Source of the DNA: Nitrospirota bacterium
Lineage (GTDB): Bacteria > Nitrospirota > UBA9217
Assembly (NCBI GenBank): GCA_963705595.1
Contig: CAVPKD010000006.1
Location: 321,781-385,780 of the forward strand
Reading direction: 5' to 3'
DNA: 64,000 bases
The notes under the pieces were generated by a model, which saw only the letters and a list, made by a program, of their open reading frames with translations, was not told the DNA's origin and did not search any database. Below, one piece after another: positions 3,575 to 57,795 of the stretch; the stretch's first letter is position 1, and every line of letters begins with the position of its first letter. The position numbers were made by a program, and so were the translations under genes.

Positions 3575-3647
3575 TCTCACCCCGAATGTAGTGAAGGGTC
3601 GCATATATTTGAAAGGCGAGATCCTCTGCTTTGCTCAGATTGACAAT
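3575..3647. repeat. Imperfect inverted repeat in an AT-rich spacer
   Basis: 3575-3602 CTCACCCCGAATGTAGTGAAGGGTCGC versus 3617-3647 GAGATCCTCTGCTTTGCTCAGATTGACAATG (reverse complement is partly collinear). Confidence 0.4.
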
Positions 3648-4479: not shown

Positions 4480-5343
4480 CTATAATCTGACCGGCACGCC
4501 TCGTTCCTTCAAATATTCCTTCGCCTGCCTGATGGTGTATTCCCTGAAGTGGAAGATCGAGGCCGCGAGAGCGGCATCGGCCTTGCCCTTGGTGAATCCC
4601 GTCATAGATATGTTCGAGGTTCCCCACGCCGCCGGAGGCGATGACCGGGATCGAGACCGCTTCGGCCACGGCGCGCGTCAGCTCCAGGTCGTAGCCCGTT
4701 CTTCTGGCCGTCCTGGTCCATGCTCGTGAGCAGTATCTCTCCAGCGCCGTACTCTTCCATCTTCCGTGCCCAGGCGACGGCATCGATGCCCATGGGCTTT
4801 CTGCCGCCGTGGGTGTAGACTTCCCACTGCAGTGCGGAGTGCGGACTGTGGATTGCGGAATCGACTGAGGAAGAGCGACCTGTATTTCGGATCATCGGCC
4901 CATTTGAGCGGCGGCTTGAAATCCTTGTCATGTGCGACAACCTGCTTGGCGTCGATGGCGACGACGATGCACTGGCTGCCGAAGCGCATGGATGCCGCCT
5001 TGATGAACTCCGGGTCGTGGACCGCAGTGGTGTTGATCGAGACCTTGTCGCGCTCCGGCGAGCAGGAGATTTCGGATATCGTCGAGGATTCTTGATGCCG
5101 CCGCCCGACGGTGAGCGGCATGAAGACCTGCTCCGCAGTGCGGCGCACGATGTCGAGGATGATGCCGCGCTCTTCGTGGGAGGCGGTGATGTCCAGGAAC
5201 GTGAGTTCGTCCGCGCCCTGCTCGTCGTAGACCTTCGCGATCTCGACGGGGTCGCCGGCGTCGTGCAGGTTCACGAAGCTGACGCCTTTTACGACACGGC
5301 CGCCTTTCACGTCGAGGCAGGGTATGATTCGTTTGGTCAGCAT
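4480..5343 (-). pseudogene. hisF: Imidazole glycerol phosphate synthase cyclase subunit; about six +1 frame disruptions as assembled
   Basis: [20 protein letters not shown]...[10 protein letters not shown]...[20 protein letters not shown]...[19 protein letters not shown]...[21 protein letters not shown] is recovered only by joining three frames (ORFs 4678-5382, 4602-4940, 4418-4783, plus the last 40 codons in frame 0). Confidence 0.9.
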
Positions 5344-5524
5344 TGATATTTCTCTCATGTCTGGCGAAAAAATAAATATCAAAAGTACAGCAAAAGGGTC
5401 ATGCTACCGCAGAGCAGCAAAGGATCCAGAGTAAGACCGTTCTTATCTTGAGTATTTCTCCTTGCGAACGCTACGTGCTTTGCGAGAAACTATAGTGCCT
5501 GCTACCGGGCGCACCGGTTGTCGT

Positions 5525-7047: not shown

Positions 7048-7213
7048 TCGGGACGCAGATTTTCGCAGATGAACGTGGATGAAAATCAAATTCATGAGGG
7101 ATACGCATGGCACGGAAAAAGTAGATTAAGAAATTTGAGTCATATCCGATCTTCAGATTTATCCATGTCCAATGAATTCTGGTTTTCCGCATCAATCTGC
7201 GTTCACCAGCGTC
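7048..7213 (-). repeat. Intercistronic imperfect inverted repeat (hisH-hisB spacer), arms of about 45 nt
   Basis: 7048-7095 GGGACGCAGATTTTCGCAGATGAACGTGGATGAAAATCAAATTCAT versus the reverse complement of 7158-7213, GGACGCTGGTGAACGCAGATTGATGCGGAAAACCAGAATTCAT (about 70% by eye). Confidence 0.55.
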
Positions 7214-9043: not shown

Positions 9044-9139
9044 ATGAACACGAATTGCACGAATTAGTCGAATATCACGAAGGGGGAAAGGAGTTTTATC
9101 CATGCTCTTCGTCCTTTTCGTGTCATTCGTAATTAAGGG
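9044..9139. repeat. Inverted repeat built from CACGAA-type short direct repeats (hisC / DUF255 divergent spacer)
   Basis: 9044-9085 ATGAACACGAATTGCACGAATTAGTCGAATATCACGAAGGG versus 9105-9139 CTCTTCGTCCTTTTCGTGTCATTCGTAATTAAGGG. Confidence 0.5.
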
Positions 9140-12336: not shown

Positions 12337-12419
12337 CTAAACGAGTCTGACAGGATGACAACAACATCTGATTTTATCTTATCCCGCCAATCCTGTAAAT
12401 ATTGTCTAAGTCGTTTCGG
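12337..12419 (-). repeat. Intercistronic imperfect inverted repeat (hisD-hisG spacer)
   Basis: 12337-12362 CTAAACGAGTCTGACAGGATGACAAC versus the reverse complement of 12392-12419, CCGAAACGACTTAGACAATATTTACAGG. Confidence 0.5.
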
Positions 12420-15417: not shown

Positions 15418-16332
15418 TCATTTTTTTCTTGCCACAATCACACGCTCGATTCCCGTGAGGTCTTTCATTATCTCCGGCAGCTCATATCGGCCGGCGTCAT
15501 TCACCATCCTCATGAGTGCGCCTGACTGTCCCTGTCCCATCTCCATGATGAGCGCTCCATGTTTTTTCAGAAACTCCGGCGCCGTGCCGATTATCCGCTG
15601 CTGAATTTCTGTCCCTTTCGGGCCCGCGATGAGCGCCAACTCGGGTTCAAAGTCCCTTACCTCGGGTTGAAGCCCAGGAAGGTCTTCGGAGCGCACATAG
15701 GGCGGATTCGAAACGATAATGTCAACCATCCCGTGAAGATCGAGTTCAGCGAGCGGTTCGAATAGGTCACCTTCGAGGAACCGAATGCGGTCCGACACGT
15801 CATGCTTACGCGCGTTCTCTCTGGCAATGGCCAGTGCTCGATCGGACTTATCCGTTGCAAAGATGCACGCGGCGTCGGCCTCCTTTGCCAGGCTCACCGC
15901 GATACATCCCGAGCCGACACAGAGATCGACGATCGTAACCTGCCCGCCCCCCGTCTGAATGATCTTGAGCGCCGCTTCTACAACCAGTTCCGTTTCCGGC
16001 CTCGGGATCAACACGTCTGGCGTGACGCTGAAATCAAGACCCCAGAATTCCTGCTCGCCGGTGATGTACTGGAGCGGCTCCCGCTGTGCCCTGCGGTTGA
16101 CCGCGTCTTCAAAGAGCGTCCGCTGTGCCTCGTCAAGAGATTCGTCGCGATGGATAATGAGCCAGGCGCGGTCTCTCATGAAAGTGCGAGAAAGAAGTAT
16201 TTCAGCGTCGAGCCTGGCATTGCTTATCCCGTGCACTGATAATCTTTGTGCTGCTTGGTATATCGCTTCAGCGAGAGTCACCGTGATAAATTGCGAATTG
16301 CGGAATGCGGATTTCGGAATTTGGTTTTCCAT
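15418..16332 (-). CDS. prmC: Release-factor glutamine N5-methyltransferase (intact)
   Basis: 304-aa ORF; EPLQYITGEQEFWG, DLCVGSGCI (SAM site), VSNPPYV motif; immediately downstream of prfA. Confidence 0.9.
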   Translation of the reverse strand: MENQIPKSAFRNSQFITVTLAEAIYQAAQRLSVHGISNARLDAEILLSRTFMRDRAWLIIHRDESLDEAQRTLFEDAVNRRAQREPLQYITGEQEFWGLDFSVTPDVLIPRPETELVVEAALKIIQTGGGQVTIVDLCVGSGCIAVSLAKEADAACIFATDKSDRALAIARENARKHDVSDRIRFLEGDLFEPLAELDLHGMVDIIVSNPPYVRSEDLPGLQPEVRDFEPELALIAGPKGTEIQQRIIGTAPEFLKKHGALIMEMGQGQSGALMRMVNDAGRYELPEIMKDLTGIERVIVARKK

Positions 16333-16364
16333 CTACAGGCCGCAATCCGAATTCTGCAATGGCC

Positions 16365-17433
16365 TTACAGGTTCTTCAATCGTTCGGCGTTTACCGCTGA
16401 GGTCAGGGCGTCGATGAACTCGTCGAGGTCGCCGTCCAGTACAGACGTCGAGCCGGTAGAGCGAAAGCCCGATGCGGTGGTCGGTCACCCTGCTCTGCGG
16501 GAAGTTATAGGTCCTGATCTTCTCGCTGCGCTCGCCGGTCCCTACCTGCGCTTTGCGGTCCTGGGCGGTCTCGGCTTCCTGCTTCTCACGCTCCTTTTCA
16601 AGCAGGCGGGACTTGAGGATCTTCATGGCCTTTTCGCGGTTCTTGAGCTGTGAGCGTTCGTCCTGGCACGCGACCACTTCGCCGGTGGGGATGTGGGTGA
16701 TCCTGACTGCCGAGTAGGTCGTGTTCACACTCTGTCCGCCGGGCCCGGAAGAACAGTAGGTGTCGATGCGCAGGTCCTTCTGTTCGATCTGCACGTCCAC
16801 ATCGTCGGCCTCGGGCAGCACAGCCACGGTCACCGTGGACGTATGGATCCTGCCGCTCGCCTCGGTTGCCGGGACGCGCTGTACGCGGTGCACGCCGCTC
16901 TCATATTTGAGCCTGCTGTAGACGCCCTTGCCCTGGATCTGGGCGATGACTTCCTTCGCGCCGCCGACACCCGTGGTGCTCATGTCGAGCAGGGTGACTT
17001 TCCAGCGTTTCTTCTCGGCATAGCGCGAGTACATGCGGAAGAGCTCGGCGGCAAAGAGGCCTGCCTCGTCGCCGCCCGCGCCTGCACGGATCTCGAGGAA
17101 GATATTCTTTTCGTCCCGGGGTCCTTGGGCACGAGCATGAGCCGGAGTTCCTGTTCCATCTGCTCGCTCCTCGGCGCGAAGCTCCTTGAGCTCGGCTTCG
17201 GCCATTGCGCGCAGCTCGGGGTCCGACTTTTTGTCCTCGGTGATCTCCTCGGTCTCTCGTGATCTGCTTCAAGAGGTCCTGATACGCGCGGTAGTGGTTC
17301 ACCACGTCCTCGATGTCCGACCGCTCCTTCGAGTACTTCTGGTACTGCTGGTGGTCGGCTGCAACCGCCGGATCGGACAGGAGCCTGGTCAGCTCATCAT
17401 ATTTTTCTGCAACTGCTTCTAATTTTTTAACAT
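16365..17433 (-). pseudogene. prfA: Peptide chain release factor 1; about five frame disruptions (including A7->A6 in codons 3-4)
   Basis: ATGTTAAAAAATTAG must read MLKKLEAVAEKYDEL...; later [40 protein letters not shown] (GGQ) and RVTDHRIGL; C-terminus [11 protein letters not shown]...RLKNL* is in another frame. Confidence 0.9.
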
Positions 17434-27030: not shown

Positions 27031-27549
27031 ATGAAGAAGGTATTGATCGCTGTAGATGAAACAGAAGGTTCAAAAGCCGTATTGTCGGTGTTCCGTAATA
27101 TGGTACGTCCGCCGGAAAGCGTGGTGCTGGTCCATGTGCAGCAGCTCGAGGGCAAGTCCCTCATGATCGACATGCTTGGGGACGCAGAGCTGAACACGCT
27201 CCGGGAGTCCCTGAAGGGCACACCGTATAAAGAGGCATTGGACCGGAAGTCGGAAAAGATCCTGAACTATTATCGGAAGGAAATTGAGAATGGCGGCTTG
27301 GTCAGCGTGAAGACCGTGGTCAGGGATGGAATCACCTCTGAGGAGATATTGAAGGTCGCCCAGGAAGAAGGTGTTGACCTTATTGTTACGGGGTACAATG
27401 GGAAGACCTTCATGCAGAGGCTTGTCACCGGCTCTATCAGCAAAGATATGGAGAAGAATGCACCGGTGCCCGTCCTCGTTGCGAAGGACCCCACGGAAGA
27501 AGAGAAGTATGCCTGGACCGCGGCCATGAGATTGAAGGCAAGCAATTAA
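27031..27549 (+). CDS. Universal stress protein, paralog 2
   Basis: MKKVLIAVDETEGSKAVL..., collinear with the gene at 26348; GAGGAGG RBS. Confidence 0.85.
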   Translation: MKKVLIAVDETEGSKAVLSVFRNMVRPPESVVLVHVQQLEGKSLMIDMLGDAELNTLRESLKGTPYKEALDRKSEKILNYYRKEIENGGLVSVKTVVRDGITSEEILKVAQEEGVDLIVTGYNGKTFMQRLVTGSISKDMEKNAPVPVLVAKDPTEEEKYAWTAAMRLKASN

Positions 27550-27596: not shown

Positions 27597-27642
27597 CGAA
27601 GCGAAGGACCTCGGTTTTTCATAGAGGCGGTCCTTCGCTTCG
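27597..27642 (+). repeat. Intercistronic 14-bp perfect hairpin (CGAAGCGAAGGACC / GGTCCTTCGCTTCG)
   Basis: 27597-27610 pairs with 27629-27642; lies between USP2 and USP3. Confidence 0.6.
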
Positions 27643-37260: not shown

Positions 37261-37344
37261 CGTGAAGGCACCAAAGGTGCAAAGTTTTACGAAGAGTCAA
37301 AGCAATATCTCAAACTCTTCTTCGCGTTCTTTGCAACTTTGTAG
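37261..37344 (-). repeat. Intercistronic imperfect inverted repeat (USP4 / FAD-oxidoreductase spacer)
   Basis: CACCAAAGGTGCAAAGTTTTACGAAGAGT versus the reverse complement of 37314-37344, CTACAAAGTTGCAAAGAACGCGAAGAAGAGT (about 75% by eye). Confidence 0.55.
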
Positions 37345-48443: not shown

Positions 48444-48523
48444 TCGCGAAAAGGAGTGATGACACGAAGAAAAGAAGAGCGAGACATCCATTCGCGTTTT
48501 TCGCATCATTCGTGCAATTCGCG
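48444..48523 (+). repeat. Intercistronic imperfect inverted repeat built from (C/A)CGAA short repeats
   Basis: CGCGAA 48445-50 pairs with TTCGCG 48518-23; ACGAA 48464-68 pairs with TTCGT 48509-13; further GCGA/TCGC pairs inside. Confidence 0.45.
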
Positions 48524-48540: not shown

Positions 48541-49707
48541 ATGAAGCTGATTGACATTTCTCTGAACAATCTGCTCCGGAAAAAAGGCCGGACTTTCTTT
48601 CTTGTCTCTGGGCTTGCAATCGGGATTGGTGCGGCCGTCGCCATGACTTCTGTGGGTAACGCCATGAACCGGGAGGTCATGCACGCGCTCGACGAGTTCG
48701 GGGCGAACATCCTCATAGTGCCGGCTACCGAGGGTTTACCGCTCTCCTATGGCGGCCTAACGGTTTCTGCAGTAAATACCGGAGGTCGGGAACTCACCAT
48801 GAACGATGTTGACCGTATCCGCACCATCAAGAACAATCAGAACATCAGTACGATCGCGCCGAAACTGCTCGTCCAGACCGATGTGAAAGGAACAAAGGTT
48901 CTCGTTGCCGGTGTAGATTTCAAGGCCGAGCAACGGCTTAAGAAATGGTGGCGGGTGGCAGCGGGAATGAATCCGCGGGACAACGGAGAGGCCCTGATCG
49001 GCAAAGATGCCGCAGCCCTGCTGCATATAGTCCCTGGCGACAGTATTGCACTCGCTCGCGGGACGACGCTGCGCGTGTCCGGCGTGCTAGACAATACCGG
49101 ATCGCAGGACGACGGTCTGATCTTCGCCGATATCAAATGGCTCCAACAGCACTTTCAGAAGGGCAATGCCGTAAGCCTTATTGAGCTTTCCGCTCTGTGC
49201 AGCGGTTGTCCTATTGAGGACATGGTGGCGCAGTTGAACAGCACGCTTCCCGGGGCTCGTGCCGTGGCAGTCAAGGAAACGGTGGAGCTCAAGATGCAGG
49301 CTATGCATTATTTTCATAAATTCTCCCTCGGCATCTCGGCGCTCCTGCTCATCGTGGCCGGCATGATAATTTTCTTCGCCATGACCGCCTCGGTCAAAGA
49401 GAGGGTGCAGGAAATCGGTCTATTCCGGGCTATCGGCTTCCGAACCGGCCATATTATCCTGGTGCTGCTCACGGAGGCCTTCATCGTGAGCTTGCTAGCG
49501 GGATTAACGGGATATGTCATCGGGGTCATCAGCCCACGGTTCGTCGCGCCCTATCTGATGAGCGCCTATAACCTGACATTCGTGATCGATCCGGTTCTGG
49601 CAGTGAGAGCGCTGGTATCATCTGTCCTCGTCGGGCTTGCAGCGAGCGTTTATCCGGCGGTGCGGGCAGGCCGGCTCGATCCGGTTGAGGCACTGAAGAC
49701 GCTGTAG
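48541..49707 (+). CDS. ABC transporter permease, FtsX/MacB-like
   Basis: 388 aa; N-terminal TM helix, large periplasmic domain, 3 C-terminal TM helices, ...RLDPVEALKTL*. Confidence 0.85.
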   Translation: MKLIDISLNNLLRKKGRTFFLVSGLAIGIGAAVAMTSVGNAMNREVMHALDEFGANILIVPATEGLPLSYGGLTVSAVNTGGRELTMNDVDRIRTIKNNQNISTIAPKLLVQTDVKGTKVLVAGVDFKAEQRLKKWWRVAAGMNPRDNGEALIGKDAAALLHIVPGDSIALARGTTLRVSGVLDNTGSQDDGLIFADIKWLQQHFQKGNAVSLIELSALCSGCPIEDMVAQLNSTLPGARAVAVKETVELKMQAMHYFHKFSLGISALLLIVAGMIIFFAMTASVKERVQEIGLFRAIGFRTGHIILVLLTEAFIVSLLAGLTGYVIGVISPRFVAPYLMSAYNLTFVIDPVLAVRALVSSVLVGLAASVYPAVRAGRLDPVEALKTL

Positions 49708-49709
49708 TA

Positions 49710-49775
49710 GCAGAGTGCAGAGCGCAAGGCGCAAAGGGATTAAACGCCGTGTTCCATGCTCTATGCTTTATGGGA
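49710..49775 (+). repeat. Heptamer-periodic inverted element between the permease and ATPase genes
   Basis: GCAGAGT GCAGAGC GCAAGGC GCAAAGG (49710-49737) faces CATGCTC TATGCTT TATGGGA (49755-49775). Confidence 0.5.
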
Positions 49776-49791
49776 AATTACAGGAGTAGGC

Positions 49792-50463
49792 ATGTCATTC
49801 ATAAAAATCTCAAACGTAACCAAGACTTTTCATGCCGGCGATGAAGAGTATGATGCTCTCAAAGGGGTTTCGCTCGGTATCAACTCCGGCGAGTTTATTG
49901 CCATCATGGGGCCGTCAGGTTCGGGCAAGAGCACCCTCCTGTCGCTCATCGGTGGATTAAGCAAGGCGACCTCAGGCGTTGTGTCCATCGACAGTATTGA
50001 TCTGGGCAGTCTCGGGCCGAACAGGCTTTCCGATTTCAGACGCGAATATCTTGGGTTTGTGTTCCAGTCCTTTTATCTCGTTCCCTATCTCACTGCGCTC
50101 GAAAATGTAATGCTTCCGCTCACGATCCAGCCAGGGCTGAACGGCACGGCACGTGGCATGGCGCATGAATCGCTAGCGCGGGTCGGGCTGGATGCCAAGG
50201 CAGGGCGTTTGCCATCCCAGCTTTCAGGCGGAGAGCAGGAGCGGGTCGCGATTGCGCGCGCTATAGTGAACAAGCCCGCCCTTATCCTCGCCGATGAGCC
50301 CACGGGGAATCTGGACACAAAAACGGGGAACAAGGTGCTCGATATGCTCGCGGGTTTGCATGCCGAAGGCCGTACGATTGTGATGGTAACCCATAGCCGG
50401 GAGAACGCAGAACGGGCTGAGAGGGTCATCGAGATTAGGGACGGGGAGATTATGAGAATGTAG
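49792..50463 (+). CDS. ABC transporter ATP-binding protein (LolD/MacB type)
   Basis: GPSGSGKST Walker A, LSGGEQERVAIARA signature, LILADEPTGNLD Walker B; AGGAG RBS before ATG 49792. Confidence 0.9.
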   Translation: MSFIKISNVTKTFHAGDEEYDALKGVSLGINSGEFIAIMGPSGSGKSTLLSLIGGLSKATSGVVSIDSIDLGSLGPNRLSDFRREYLGFVFQSFYLVPYLTALENVMLPLTIQPGLNGTARGMAHESLARVGLDAKAGRLPSQLSGGEQERVAIARAIVNKPALILADEPTGNLDTKTGNKVLDMLAGLHAEGRTIVMVTHSRENAERAERVIEIRDGEIMRM

Positions 50464-57683: not shown

Positions 57684-57795
57684 CTGTTGTTGCGAGCCAA
57701 AGGCAATCTCGGTTTGGTCGCTCGCGATAAACTCCGCAATCTCATTTTTCCAGGTCCTAAGATCGTACGACATGACCCTCCTCGCAATGACAATG
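57684..57795. repeat. Long-range inverted repeat (TGTTGTTGCGAG ... CTCGCAATGACA) in the spacer upstream of ampG
   Basis: 57686-57697 versus 57781-57792 (10 of 12 complementary), with additional GCAATCTC copies at 57703-10 and 57736-43. Confidence 0.45.

Follow-up and report, generated by a model that had tools for sequence, protein, structure and literature searches.

The spacers of this stretch of DNA raise the question of what the short, degenerate tandem repeats are that face each other head to head between neighboring genes, and whether they are a mobile family, working RNA structures, or remnants. The window, by which we mean the whole stretch of 64,000 nucleotides that was analyzed, corresponds to C6:321781–385780 of a 3.62-Mb genome in 10 contigs (G000, the own genome in what follows). 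An earlier note on this DNA had listed ten such sites, had described them as one architecture in several sequence flavors occupying most spacers, and had interpreted them as a REP/BIME-like family whose arms diversify while the layout is kept. Its observation was partly confirmed but overstated, and its interpretation was partly supported. In our judgment, the spacer elements of the window are probably worn-down, gene-less members of a class of convergent heptamer-repeat hairpins and are neutral relics here. This class is already known, and the Xanthomonas GGGAATC repeats, the cyanobacterial STRR, and the Geobacter paired sites belong to it. Each arm would consist of 7-nt units (sometimes 8–11 nt) in tandem, with the purine- or A-rich array first and its complement second.

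The focal element occupies the spacer between the genes for an FtsX/MacB-type permease and an ABC ATPase (49705–49794; Table 1), and its repeat array shares its first base with the end of the tandem TAG TAG stop codons (49710). The facing heptamer arms that had been pointed out at this site were both 7-periodic, but their complementarity was not significant in the site-by-site test (p = 0.30), and the predicted RNA fold of −20.6 kcal/mol was not better than those of shuffled sequences (z = −0.7). The GATTAAAC of the focal copy is the counterpart of gATTCAaAC, the core conserved in the intact family described below, and the core is retained. Thirteen sister-genome copies were combined into an nhmmer model; it matched the focal element with an E value of 4.8e-6, which was the second-best match genome-wide, and the same model retrieved approximately 25 further degenerate copies in the own genome (E < 0.03). 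The focal element is homologous in sequence to the GCAGAGN/CYATGCN family of sister genera, and its 3′ arm is a decayed form of the conserved (CYATGCN)4 arm. An intrinsic terminator at the focal element was considered and rejected: no terminator-like site was found between 49500 and 50000, and the element sits inside an operon. Rfam 15 gave no match at gathering score across the whole window. In two metatranscriptome runs, the reads obtained were only fragments of the conserved ABC-ATPase parts of relatives. The ATPase start given by the ORF lister (49756) is an ATG within the 3′ arm, and the ATG in this arm misleads ORF callers on the ATPase start.

Table 1. Positions of the focal element, its flanking signals, and further sites in the window
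Feature	Position	Strand	Evidence or context
Tandem stop codons TAG TAG	49705–49710	+	End of FtsX/MacB-type permease gene (48541–49707)
5′ arm, four degenerate heptamers GCAGAGT GCAGAGC GCAAGGC GCAAAGG	49710–49737	+	Lag-7 autocorrelation 0.76, p < 0.001
Core/loop: GATTAAAC (49738–45), then GCCGTGTT	49738–49753	+	Comparison with G006, G007, G009, and G016 copies
3′ arm CCATGC-T-CTATGC-T-TTATGG	49754–49773	+	Lag-7 autocorrelation 0.64, p = 0.009
Shine-Dalgarno (SD) AGGAG (49782–86) and likely ATG start (49792) of ABC ATPase	49782–49794	+	
GGACGCAGAT...ATCTGCGTCC element, period 10–11, long core	7053–7213		Periodicity p < 0.001; complementarity p = 0.009
CACGAAT-flavor element, period ~9, divergent spacer	9048–9134		Left-arm periodicity p < 0.001; complementarity p = 0.007
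GCGGAWT heptamer element, junction of two minus-strand ORFs	16293–16357		Lag 7: 0.74 and 0.60; complementarity p = 0.001
Plain 14-bp hairpin CGAAGCGAAGGACC / GGTCCTTCGCTTCG, then TTTGTGT, after gene 27031–27549	27597–27642	+	Complementarity p = 0.0005; periodicity none
GCAAAG/CGAAGA-flavor element between two minus-strand genes	37261–37344		Left-arm periodicity p = 0.03; complementarity p = 0.002
CGCGAA/CACGAA-flavor element, spacer between upstream gene and FtsX gene	48444–48523		Right-arm periodicity p = 0.001; graded marginal

When periodicity and complementarity were tested, five or six of the ten sites held up, those at 12337 and 13739 were marginal, and those at 3575 and 57684 showed neither property. 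The common architecture, consisting of an A- or purine-rich arm of tandem repeats, a core, and a complementary arm, was confirmed. The sites do come in several sequence flavors, each of which is multi-copy in the own genome, and, as had been stated, no transposase or target-site duplication was seen attached to the elements. The site at 27597–27642 had been counted among the repeat elements; it has no periodicity, and it looks like a terminator, not a periodic-arm element, because it is a plain 14-bp hairpin with a T-rich tail. Terminator anatomy, a G+C-rich stem followed by a T run, was found only there among the sites of the window. A clean heptamer element absent from the earlier list was found at 16293–16357. 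When spacers of 50 nt or more are counted, the sites take up approximately 9 of 46, and their presence in "most spacers" was therefore overstated. Periods of 10–11 nt characterize the CGCAGAT flavor. The termini of the 7053–7213 element recur at four other loci (C6:853464, C1:165555, C6:37320, and C6:827460). As for MITE-type features, TIR-like termini are common to the CGCAGAT and CACGAAT flavors, no target-site duplication was visible at five copies, and a cognate IS was not identified. Since the congener G001 has every copy of the window, the comparison yielded no empty site.

When the ten sites were compared with the own genome by blastn-short, whole elements were not repeated and only sub-motif matches were obtained. 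For this reason, unit-level scans and an HMM were needed to recognize the families. Period-7 tandem arrays with a TRF score of at least 34 numbered 29 in intergenic and 12 in coding DNA, compared with 1 each in block-shuffled sequences, where the intergenic statistics rest on crude gene calls (74% coding). Head-to-head loci of the form K,K...rcK,rcK within 130 nt numbered 9 for k = 6 and 134 for k = 5, compared with approximately 1 and 47 in shuffles, respectively. An inverted partner array accompanied 37 of 206 intergenic arrays, compared with 11 for a complement-only control, and among paired intergenic arrays the A-rich arm preceded its partner in 25 cases and followed it in 8. Genome-wide head-to-head counts of the CACGAAT, GCAAAG-type, ACAGGAT, and GCGGAWT flavors were 11, 29, 6, and 6, compared with 0, 1, 0, and 1 in shuffles, respectively; CCAAAT gave 21 overlapping matches (14 listed, at 9 loci) compared with 1 in shuffles. 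A nested element is present in the own genome at C6:261863. TRF alone was too insensitive for arm pairing, since it recovered 7 pairs and was noisy in shuffles at a score of 26, and a generic inverted-repeat scan recovered mostly ordinary A-tract/T-tract terminators. The flavors thus recur as multi-copy families, though whole elements do not. Because the elements recur and their periodicity exceeds the background, neither a lack of recurrence nor a background level of periodicity, the two outcomes that the earlier note had held to speak against it, was found.

A DNA search of relatives located the orthologous FtsX–ATPase locus in six genomes. Two orthologous spacers in G007, G009, and G006 contained much longer and cleaner arrays than those of the own genome, with (GCAGAGN/GCATAGN/GGAAGAG)n right behind the stop codon and (CYATGCN)4 right before the SD sequence. 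In the orthologous spacers of L003, L006, and L007, four CTATGC/CCATGC units were found at the place of the focal 3′ arm, and the spacer orthologous to the 48444 site contained long GCAGAGG/GCATAGA arrays in G006 and G009. The number of units in the FtsX spacers varied from 4 to more than 10 across G000, G001, G007, G009, and G006, and in G017 and G018 the element was absent or unrecognizable at the focal spacer.

The order of the intact element is stop codon, 0–10 nt, (GCAGAGN)4–19, the GATTCAAAC core, (CYATGCN)4, 15–50 nt, and SD-ATG, with an arm length of 3 to 19 units. Twenty loci of G006 were stereotyped and oriented with transcription, and in them the core gATTCAaAC was followed by CCTATGC GCCATGC nCYATGC GCTATGC. 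The array began 0–10 nt past the stop codon in every listed sister copy, and the variable GCAGAG arm adjoined a same-strand stop codon in 11 of approximately 14 orientable copies of G006. In the predicted fold of intact copies, 3-bp and 2-bp blocks make up a long stem that is interrupted at each heptamer, with energies of −16 to −31 kcal/mol and, in 12 of 13 intact copies, z scores between −1.2 and −4.3. When GCAGAG is paired with CYATGC, every unit contains a G.A mismatch, and the conserved 3′ arm is therefore not simply a pairing partner. The CYATGC arm is more conserved than pairing needs and may also serve a separate role. An intact transcribed hairpin would, like REPs, act as an RNA stem-loop right behind the stop codon, where it could shield the 3′ end or be a candidate substrate of RNase III.

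The pattern (GCAGAGN)3 with up to two mismatches was present in 47 of the 61 family genomes and in 17 of 19 genera. It reached 240 matches in G006 and numbered 10 in the own genome, and the reversed control gave 0 in the own genome and 0–11 in array-rich genomes. With one genome per species scanned, the stricter pattern (GCAGAGN)3GCAKAG was found at 120 loci at least. The matches listed included Acidobacteriota, Planctomycetota, Verrucomicrobiota, Gemmatimonadota, Cyanobacteria, Bacteroidota, Chloroflexota, Desulfobacterales, Thermodesulfovibrionales, and others. Many of these cross-phylum loci, among the matches listed, had a facing (NCTCTGC)n array, and some had nested flavors; in L071, outer CGCAGATTA units enclose inner GGCAGAG units. 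Among the same matches, inverted units lay downstream of the purine-rich array in 89 cases and upstream in 27 (control, 20–23), and a clear partner array was located on its 3′ side in 17 loci compared with 2 on the other side. An ORF of at least 90 codons ended no more than 40 nt upstream of the purine-rich array, in the sense orientation in 35 of 99 listed matches and in the antisense orientation in 15. The class is very widespread and has a strict polarity, with the purine-rich array behind a sense-strand stop codon and its complement before the next start. A full-text literature search with GCAGAG heptamer words found no prokaryotic paper.

Divergence within the own genus was examined with contig C157 of G001, which is syntenic with the window at 2.5–22.4 kb and 45.1–64 kb. 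Identity between G000 and G001 was 81.5% in the elements (n = 677) and 81.4% at 4-fold degenerate sites (n = 4557), compared with 95.3% at codon positions 1 and 2 and 88.6% in other called-intergenic DNA; the neutral-rate estimate for the elements is based on 677 positions only. Substitutions in the 7053 and 9048 arms, as read by eye from the alignment with no systematic pair count, break pairs, and none of them was seen to be compensatory. Because identity is at the synonymous level and substitutions break pairs, the element copies are drifting in the own genus. In the 48444 element, G001 lacks approximately 19 nt between two CATTCG units, and because this is an indel of whole units, changes in copy length match the prediction from slippage. 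As such indel patterns suggest, the arrays would grow and shrink by replication slippage, which would favor heptamers. Diversification of the arms under a preserved layout, as stated in the earlier note, implies that structure is selected, and this idea did not survive the comparison, in which divergence was at the neutral rate, no compensatory change was seen, and the focal fold was no better than shuffles. Arrays that persist at the same spacers across genera with saturated synonymous sites could mean selection, not self-renewal. Annotators should not take the relic spacer elements for regulators, terminators, or REPs.

A gene family that may be connected with the intact arrays is PF05635, the 'S23p' or Avd-like four-helix-bundle family, the "23S rRNA intervening-sequence protein". 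It was present in 44 of the 61 family genomes and gave no match in any of the four genomes of the own genus (G000, G001, G002, and G003), one of which is 99% complete. PF05635 is present in all 15 family genomes with at least 11 GCAGAG-pattern matches, and the 17 family genomes that lack it have 10 such matches at most. The association between PF05635 and array abundance was significant by Fisher's test (p = 0.006) and by Spearman correlation (0.33, p = 0.01), neither of which was phylogenetically corrected. In flavor-agnostic 400-kb samples, in which period-7 arrays (TRF score of at least 34) and head-to-head loci (k = 6) were counted, the PF05635-carrying genomes G012 and G052 had 32 and 29 arrays and 11 and 10 head-to-head loci, respectively. 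The PF05635-less genomes G045 and G047 had no arrays, with 0 and 2 head-to-head loci, respectively, and the C6 and C4 samples of the own genome, which also lacks PF05635, had 7 and 5 arrays, respectively, and no head-to-head loci. Enclosure of the gene was scored when a 5-mer was repeated upstream and its reverse complement was repeated downstream. By this test, 8 of 12 inspected sister-genome PF05635 genes lay within repeat arms, compared with 1 of 20 control intervals displaced by 1 kb. Each inspected gene has its own word, and the GCAKRG word was found in two. The PF05635 protein resembles the DGR accessory protein Avd (PMC10053308).

We tentatively consider it possible, though on balance doubtful, that heptamer-repeat hairpins depend on PF05635 proteins, such that each gene would occupy the loop of a hairpin composed of its own word, gene-less hairpins would be non-autonomous derivatives, and arrays would decay neutrally after gene loss. 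The evidence that ties PF05635 to the arrays is correlational. The gene and its arms may just move as a single cassette, with the PF05635 protein inert toward the arrays. In the own genus, the elements would no longer be renewed, likely because PF05635 cassettes are absent, and would be drifting to extinction. If the dependence is real, it would provide a maker or keeper for STRR-type repeats, which have been unexplained since 1990, and a function for the widespread PF05635 family, and would link repeats and protein family alike to rRNA intervening sequences. The family constitutes a natural experiment, comprising genera with hundreds of long arrays and PF05635 cassettes, genera with neither, and the own genus with decaying arrays and no PF05635, and what makes or keeps heptamer repeats is therefore directly testable.

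The relic reading has to be weighed against one in which the elements still work as RNA stem-loops in polycistronic mRNAs, serving as intercistronic stabilizers, RNase III sites, or stop–start couplers. In E. coli, REPs within 15 nt of stop codons reportedly affect translation and mRNA decay (Liang, Rudd and Deutscher in 2015), and by analogy this favors working stem-loops, as do the strand-specific position at the stop codon, the end of the 3′ arm just before the SD sequence in the intact family, the location inside a conserved FtsX/ATPase pair, and the good folds of intact copies. However, the focal copy neither folds better than shuffles nor has significantly complementary arms, substitutions relative to G001 accumulate at the neutral rate and none was seen to be compensatory, no recognizable element occupies the focal spacer in G017 and G018, and the 9048 copy sits in a divergent promoter spacer. 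We regard function of this kind as unlikely for the copies in the window. A mobile REP/BIME-like family, with one RAYT (TnpA-REP) tyrosine transposase mobilizing each flavor, is highly improbable. REPs, as in E. coli and Pseudomonas, are dispersed extragenic hairpins, often behind stop codons in operons, and several families may coexist; they are palindromes of fixed length with a conserved tetranucleotide head and flank a single-copy RAYT gene. The elements are likewise dispersed, extragenic, multi-copy, and hairpin-capable, adjoin stop codons, and form several families in one genome, and PF01797 had 10 matches in the own genome and proteins of approximately 300 amino acids with weak Y1_Tnp matches occur in many family genomes. 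The five best Y1 genes, however, are near-identical copies with conserved flanks of approximately 260 nt on each side and no heptamer arms, and are therefore of the IS200/IS605 type. Y1_Tnp counts did not track arrays across 20 genomes, since array-rich G016, G034, G064, and G004 have none and array-free G041 and G047 have 28 and 22, respectively. The arms, moreover, vary from 3 to 19 units, and neither a conserved GTAG head nor a fixed-length palindrome was found. With neither a repeat-flanked single-copy Y1 gene nor an array correlation across these 20 genomes, a REP/RAYT system was rejected, and with it the earlier assignment.

Even less probable, in our view, is that a nucleoid or regulatory protein binds the arrays as double-stranded DNA, each helical turn or heptamer providing one site. 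The periods of 10–11 nt in the CGCAGAT flavor would suit such a protein, the conserved and imperfectly complementary CYATGC arm suggests a reader of sequence, and IHF/HU binding was proposed for the Geobacter repeats (PMC2700814). Many unrelated flavors, however, would require many proteins, orientation tracks transcription and stop codons rather than promoters, and the copies in the window drift neutrally. We attach almost no probability to a chance resemblance picked by eye together with ordinary terminators. Such chance would account for the blank sites at 3575 and 57684, the marginal ones at 12337 and 13739, the simple terminator-like hairpin at 27597, and the many period-7 matches that low-score TRF yields in shuffles as well, but not for the 29 intergenic period-7 arrays against 1 in shuffles, the head-to-head flavor counts of 11, 29, 21, and 6 against 0–1, or the homology of the focal element to long sister-genome arrays, and it was refuted for the core sites.

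Worn-down convergent hairpins therefore remain the preferred reading, and the elements of the window add to the known class of convergent heptamer-repeat pairs and are not RAYT/REP elements. The STRR are tandem heptamers dispersed in intergenic DNA, with several unit families per genome, and as described they are direct arrays. The elements studied here share the intergenic tandem heptamers and the several unit families per genome, and differ from that description in their head-to-head pairing, their adjacency to stop codons, and their link to PF05635. The STRR heptanucleotides of heterocystous cyanobacteria go back to Mazel et al. (1990), as cited in PMC4692102. Heptamers are the commonest unit of long SSRs, possibly as a result of polymerase slippage, according to Mrazek et al. 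(2007) as cited in PMC4679880 and PMC4692102. In Xanthomonas, Rehm et al. [quoted passage not shown] The counterpart unit in Nostoc is GGGGAYT (PMC4692102). Like these pairs, the elements described here have an intergenic-biased 7-nt tandem unit in convergent arrays on opposite strands, with a purine-rich array on the coding strand behind the stop codon, a position kept in relatives, and a variable repeat number. Unlike them, they comprise many unit sequences, the best-defined flavor has a conserved core and an imperfectly complementary 3′ arm, and the copies in the own genome are short and decayed.

In Geobacter metallireducens, Aklujkar et al. (2009) described paired sites on opposite strands, each with 3–5 tandem repeats of 7–9 nt, as 'global regulator binding sites' of classes 1–3 (GTTGCTYN, TCTCCGTS[Y], and MTYCTGA; tens of copies each). 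The spacing of the partners is variable, and one pair is located in an operon, between proB and proA; the authors guessed, without a test, that these are IHF/HU sites (PMC2700814). The elements in the window resemble them as opposite-strand pairs of short tandem repeats, including the intra-operon location of that one pair, and differ in unit sequences and in their position at stop codons, a rule that was not reported for Geobacter. TAACTGA repeats were described by MacGregor (2015; PMC4679880), and none of the descriptions of the Xanthomonas, Geobacter, and TAACTGA repeats established a function (PMC4692102, PMC2700814, and PMC4679880). With the 23S rRNA intervening sequences that bear an ORF, the sister genomes share a long hairpin enclosing a small PF05635 gene; unlike those sequences, the sister cassettes lie between protein genes and not in rRNA, and, unlike the cassettes, the copies in the window are gene-less in a genome with no PF05635 gene.

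The idea that heptamers form G-quadruplexes comes from Rehm et al. (PMC4692102). In the present elements, G3 runs arise from the GCAGAGG sub-variant only, and most flavors cannot form a G-quadruplex, which is a further difference from the Xanthomonas and Nostoc repeats. The arms also read as SD-like arrays facing ATG arrays, and GCATAGN contains TAG in all frames.

In the FtsX-ATPase spacer of a relative of the same bacterial family (locus L006, genome G009), at least eight copies of a one-base variant unit, GGAAGAG, have replaced the 5′ arm of the hairpin, while the 3′ arm is still composed of CTATGC/CCATGC. Since the 5′ arm had switched to GGAAGAG with the 3′ arm unchanged, the two arms therefore expand independently of each other. 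Single spacers with several unrelated heptamer words in succession were also observed at L031 (Bacteroidia MAG), L037 (Pirellulales MAG), and L043 (Chloroflexi MAG). At L031, (GCAGAGA)8 passes straight into (RACTGAA)n, the latter word resembling the TAACTGA repeats of Beggiatoaceae.

In the window, the ORF lister placed the start of the ABC ATPase gene at ATG 49756, which falls within a CCATGC unit of the 3′ arm. Each (CYATGCN) unit supplies one ATG, and the frame differs from unit to unit. ATG 49792, preceded by AGGAG at 49782-86, is the likelier start of the gene than ATG 49756.

The earlier note had likened the hairpins to REP/BIME elements, a reading on which the Y1-transposase genes of the same genome (G000) bear. 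Four of these five genes are near-identical and have flanks of approximately 260 nt in common on both sides, which identifies them as an IS200/IS605-type insertion sequence; the flanks of the copy on contig C2 are unlike those of the other four. Heptamer repeats were found beside none of the five genes. Proteins of approximately 290–340 amino acid residues with a weak match to Y1_Tnp (E ~1e-13) were encoded in many genomes of the family (G007, G014, G050, G069, G013, and G015), and these constitute another type of HUH/Y1 protein, longer than the first.

Y1-transposase genes of G000 and an additional heptamer hairpin of the window
Feature	Location	Remark
Y1-transposase gene	C4:218190	
Y1-transposase gene	C3:109709	
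Y1-transposase gene	C10:116027	
Y1-transposase gene	C10:122636	
Y1-transposase gene	C2:447771	
GCGGAWT heptamer hairpin	window 16293-16357	at junction of two minus-strand ORF calls; absent from the earlier note's list

The minus-strand ORF calls that adjoin at the GCGGAWT hairpin are 15418-16332 and 16333-17205, and the hairpin is probably read through by the downstream call. Motifs of the type GTCATTGCGAG...GAGATTGC...GCTCGCAA were present at window 57684-57795, which the earlier note had grouped with the other hairpins, and at C6:491921-492065 of the same genome; they look like a separate dispersed hairpin repeat outside the heptamer class.

At locus L195 of another family genome (G006:C71, ~5300-5500), a mini-ORF of four codons (ATG AAG GGG AAA TAA) with its own GGAGG is followed by a GCAGAGG hairpin and then by a strong intrinsic terminator. 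This arrangement looks like a small independent transcription unit formed around the hairpin. Nothing equivalent to region 22375-45126 of the window (~22.7 kb) is present at the corresponding syntenic position of the congener contig G001:C157, reflecting either an insertion in G000 or a deletion in the congener.
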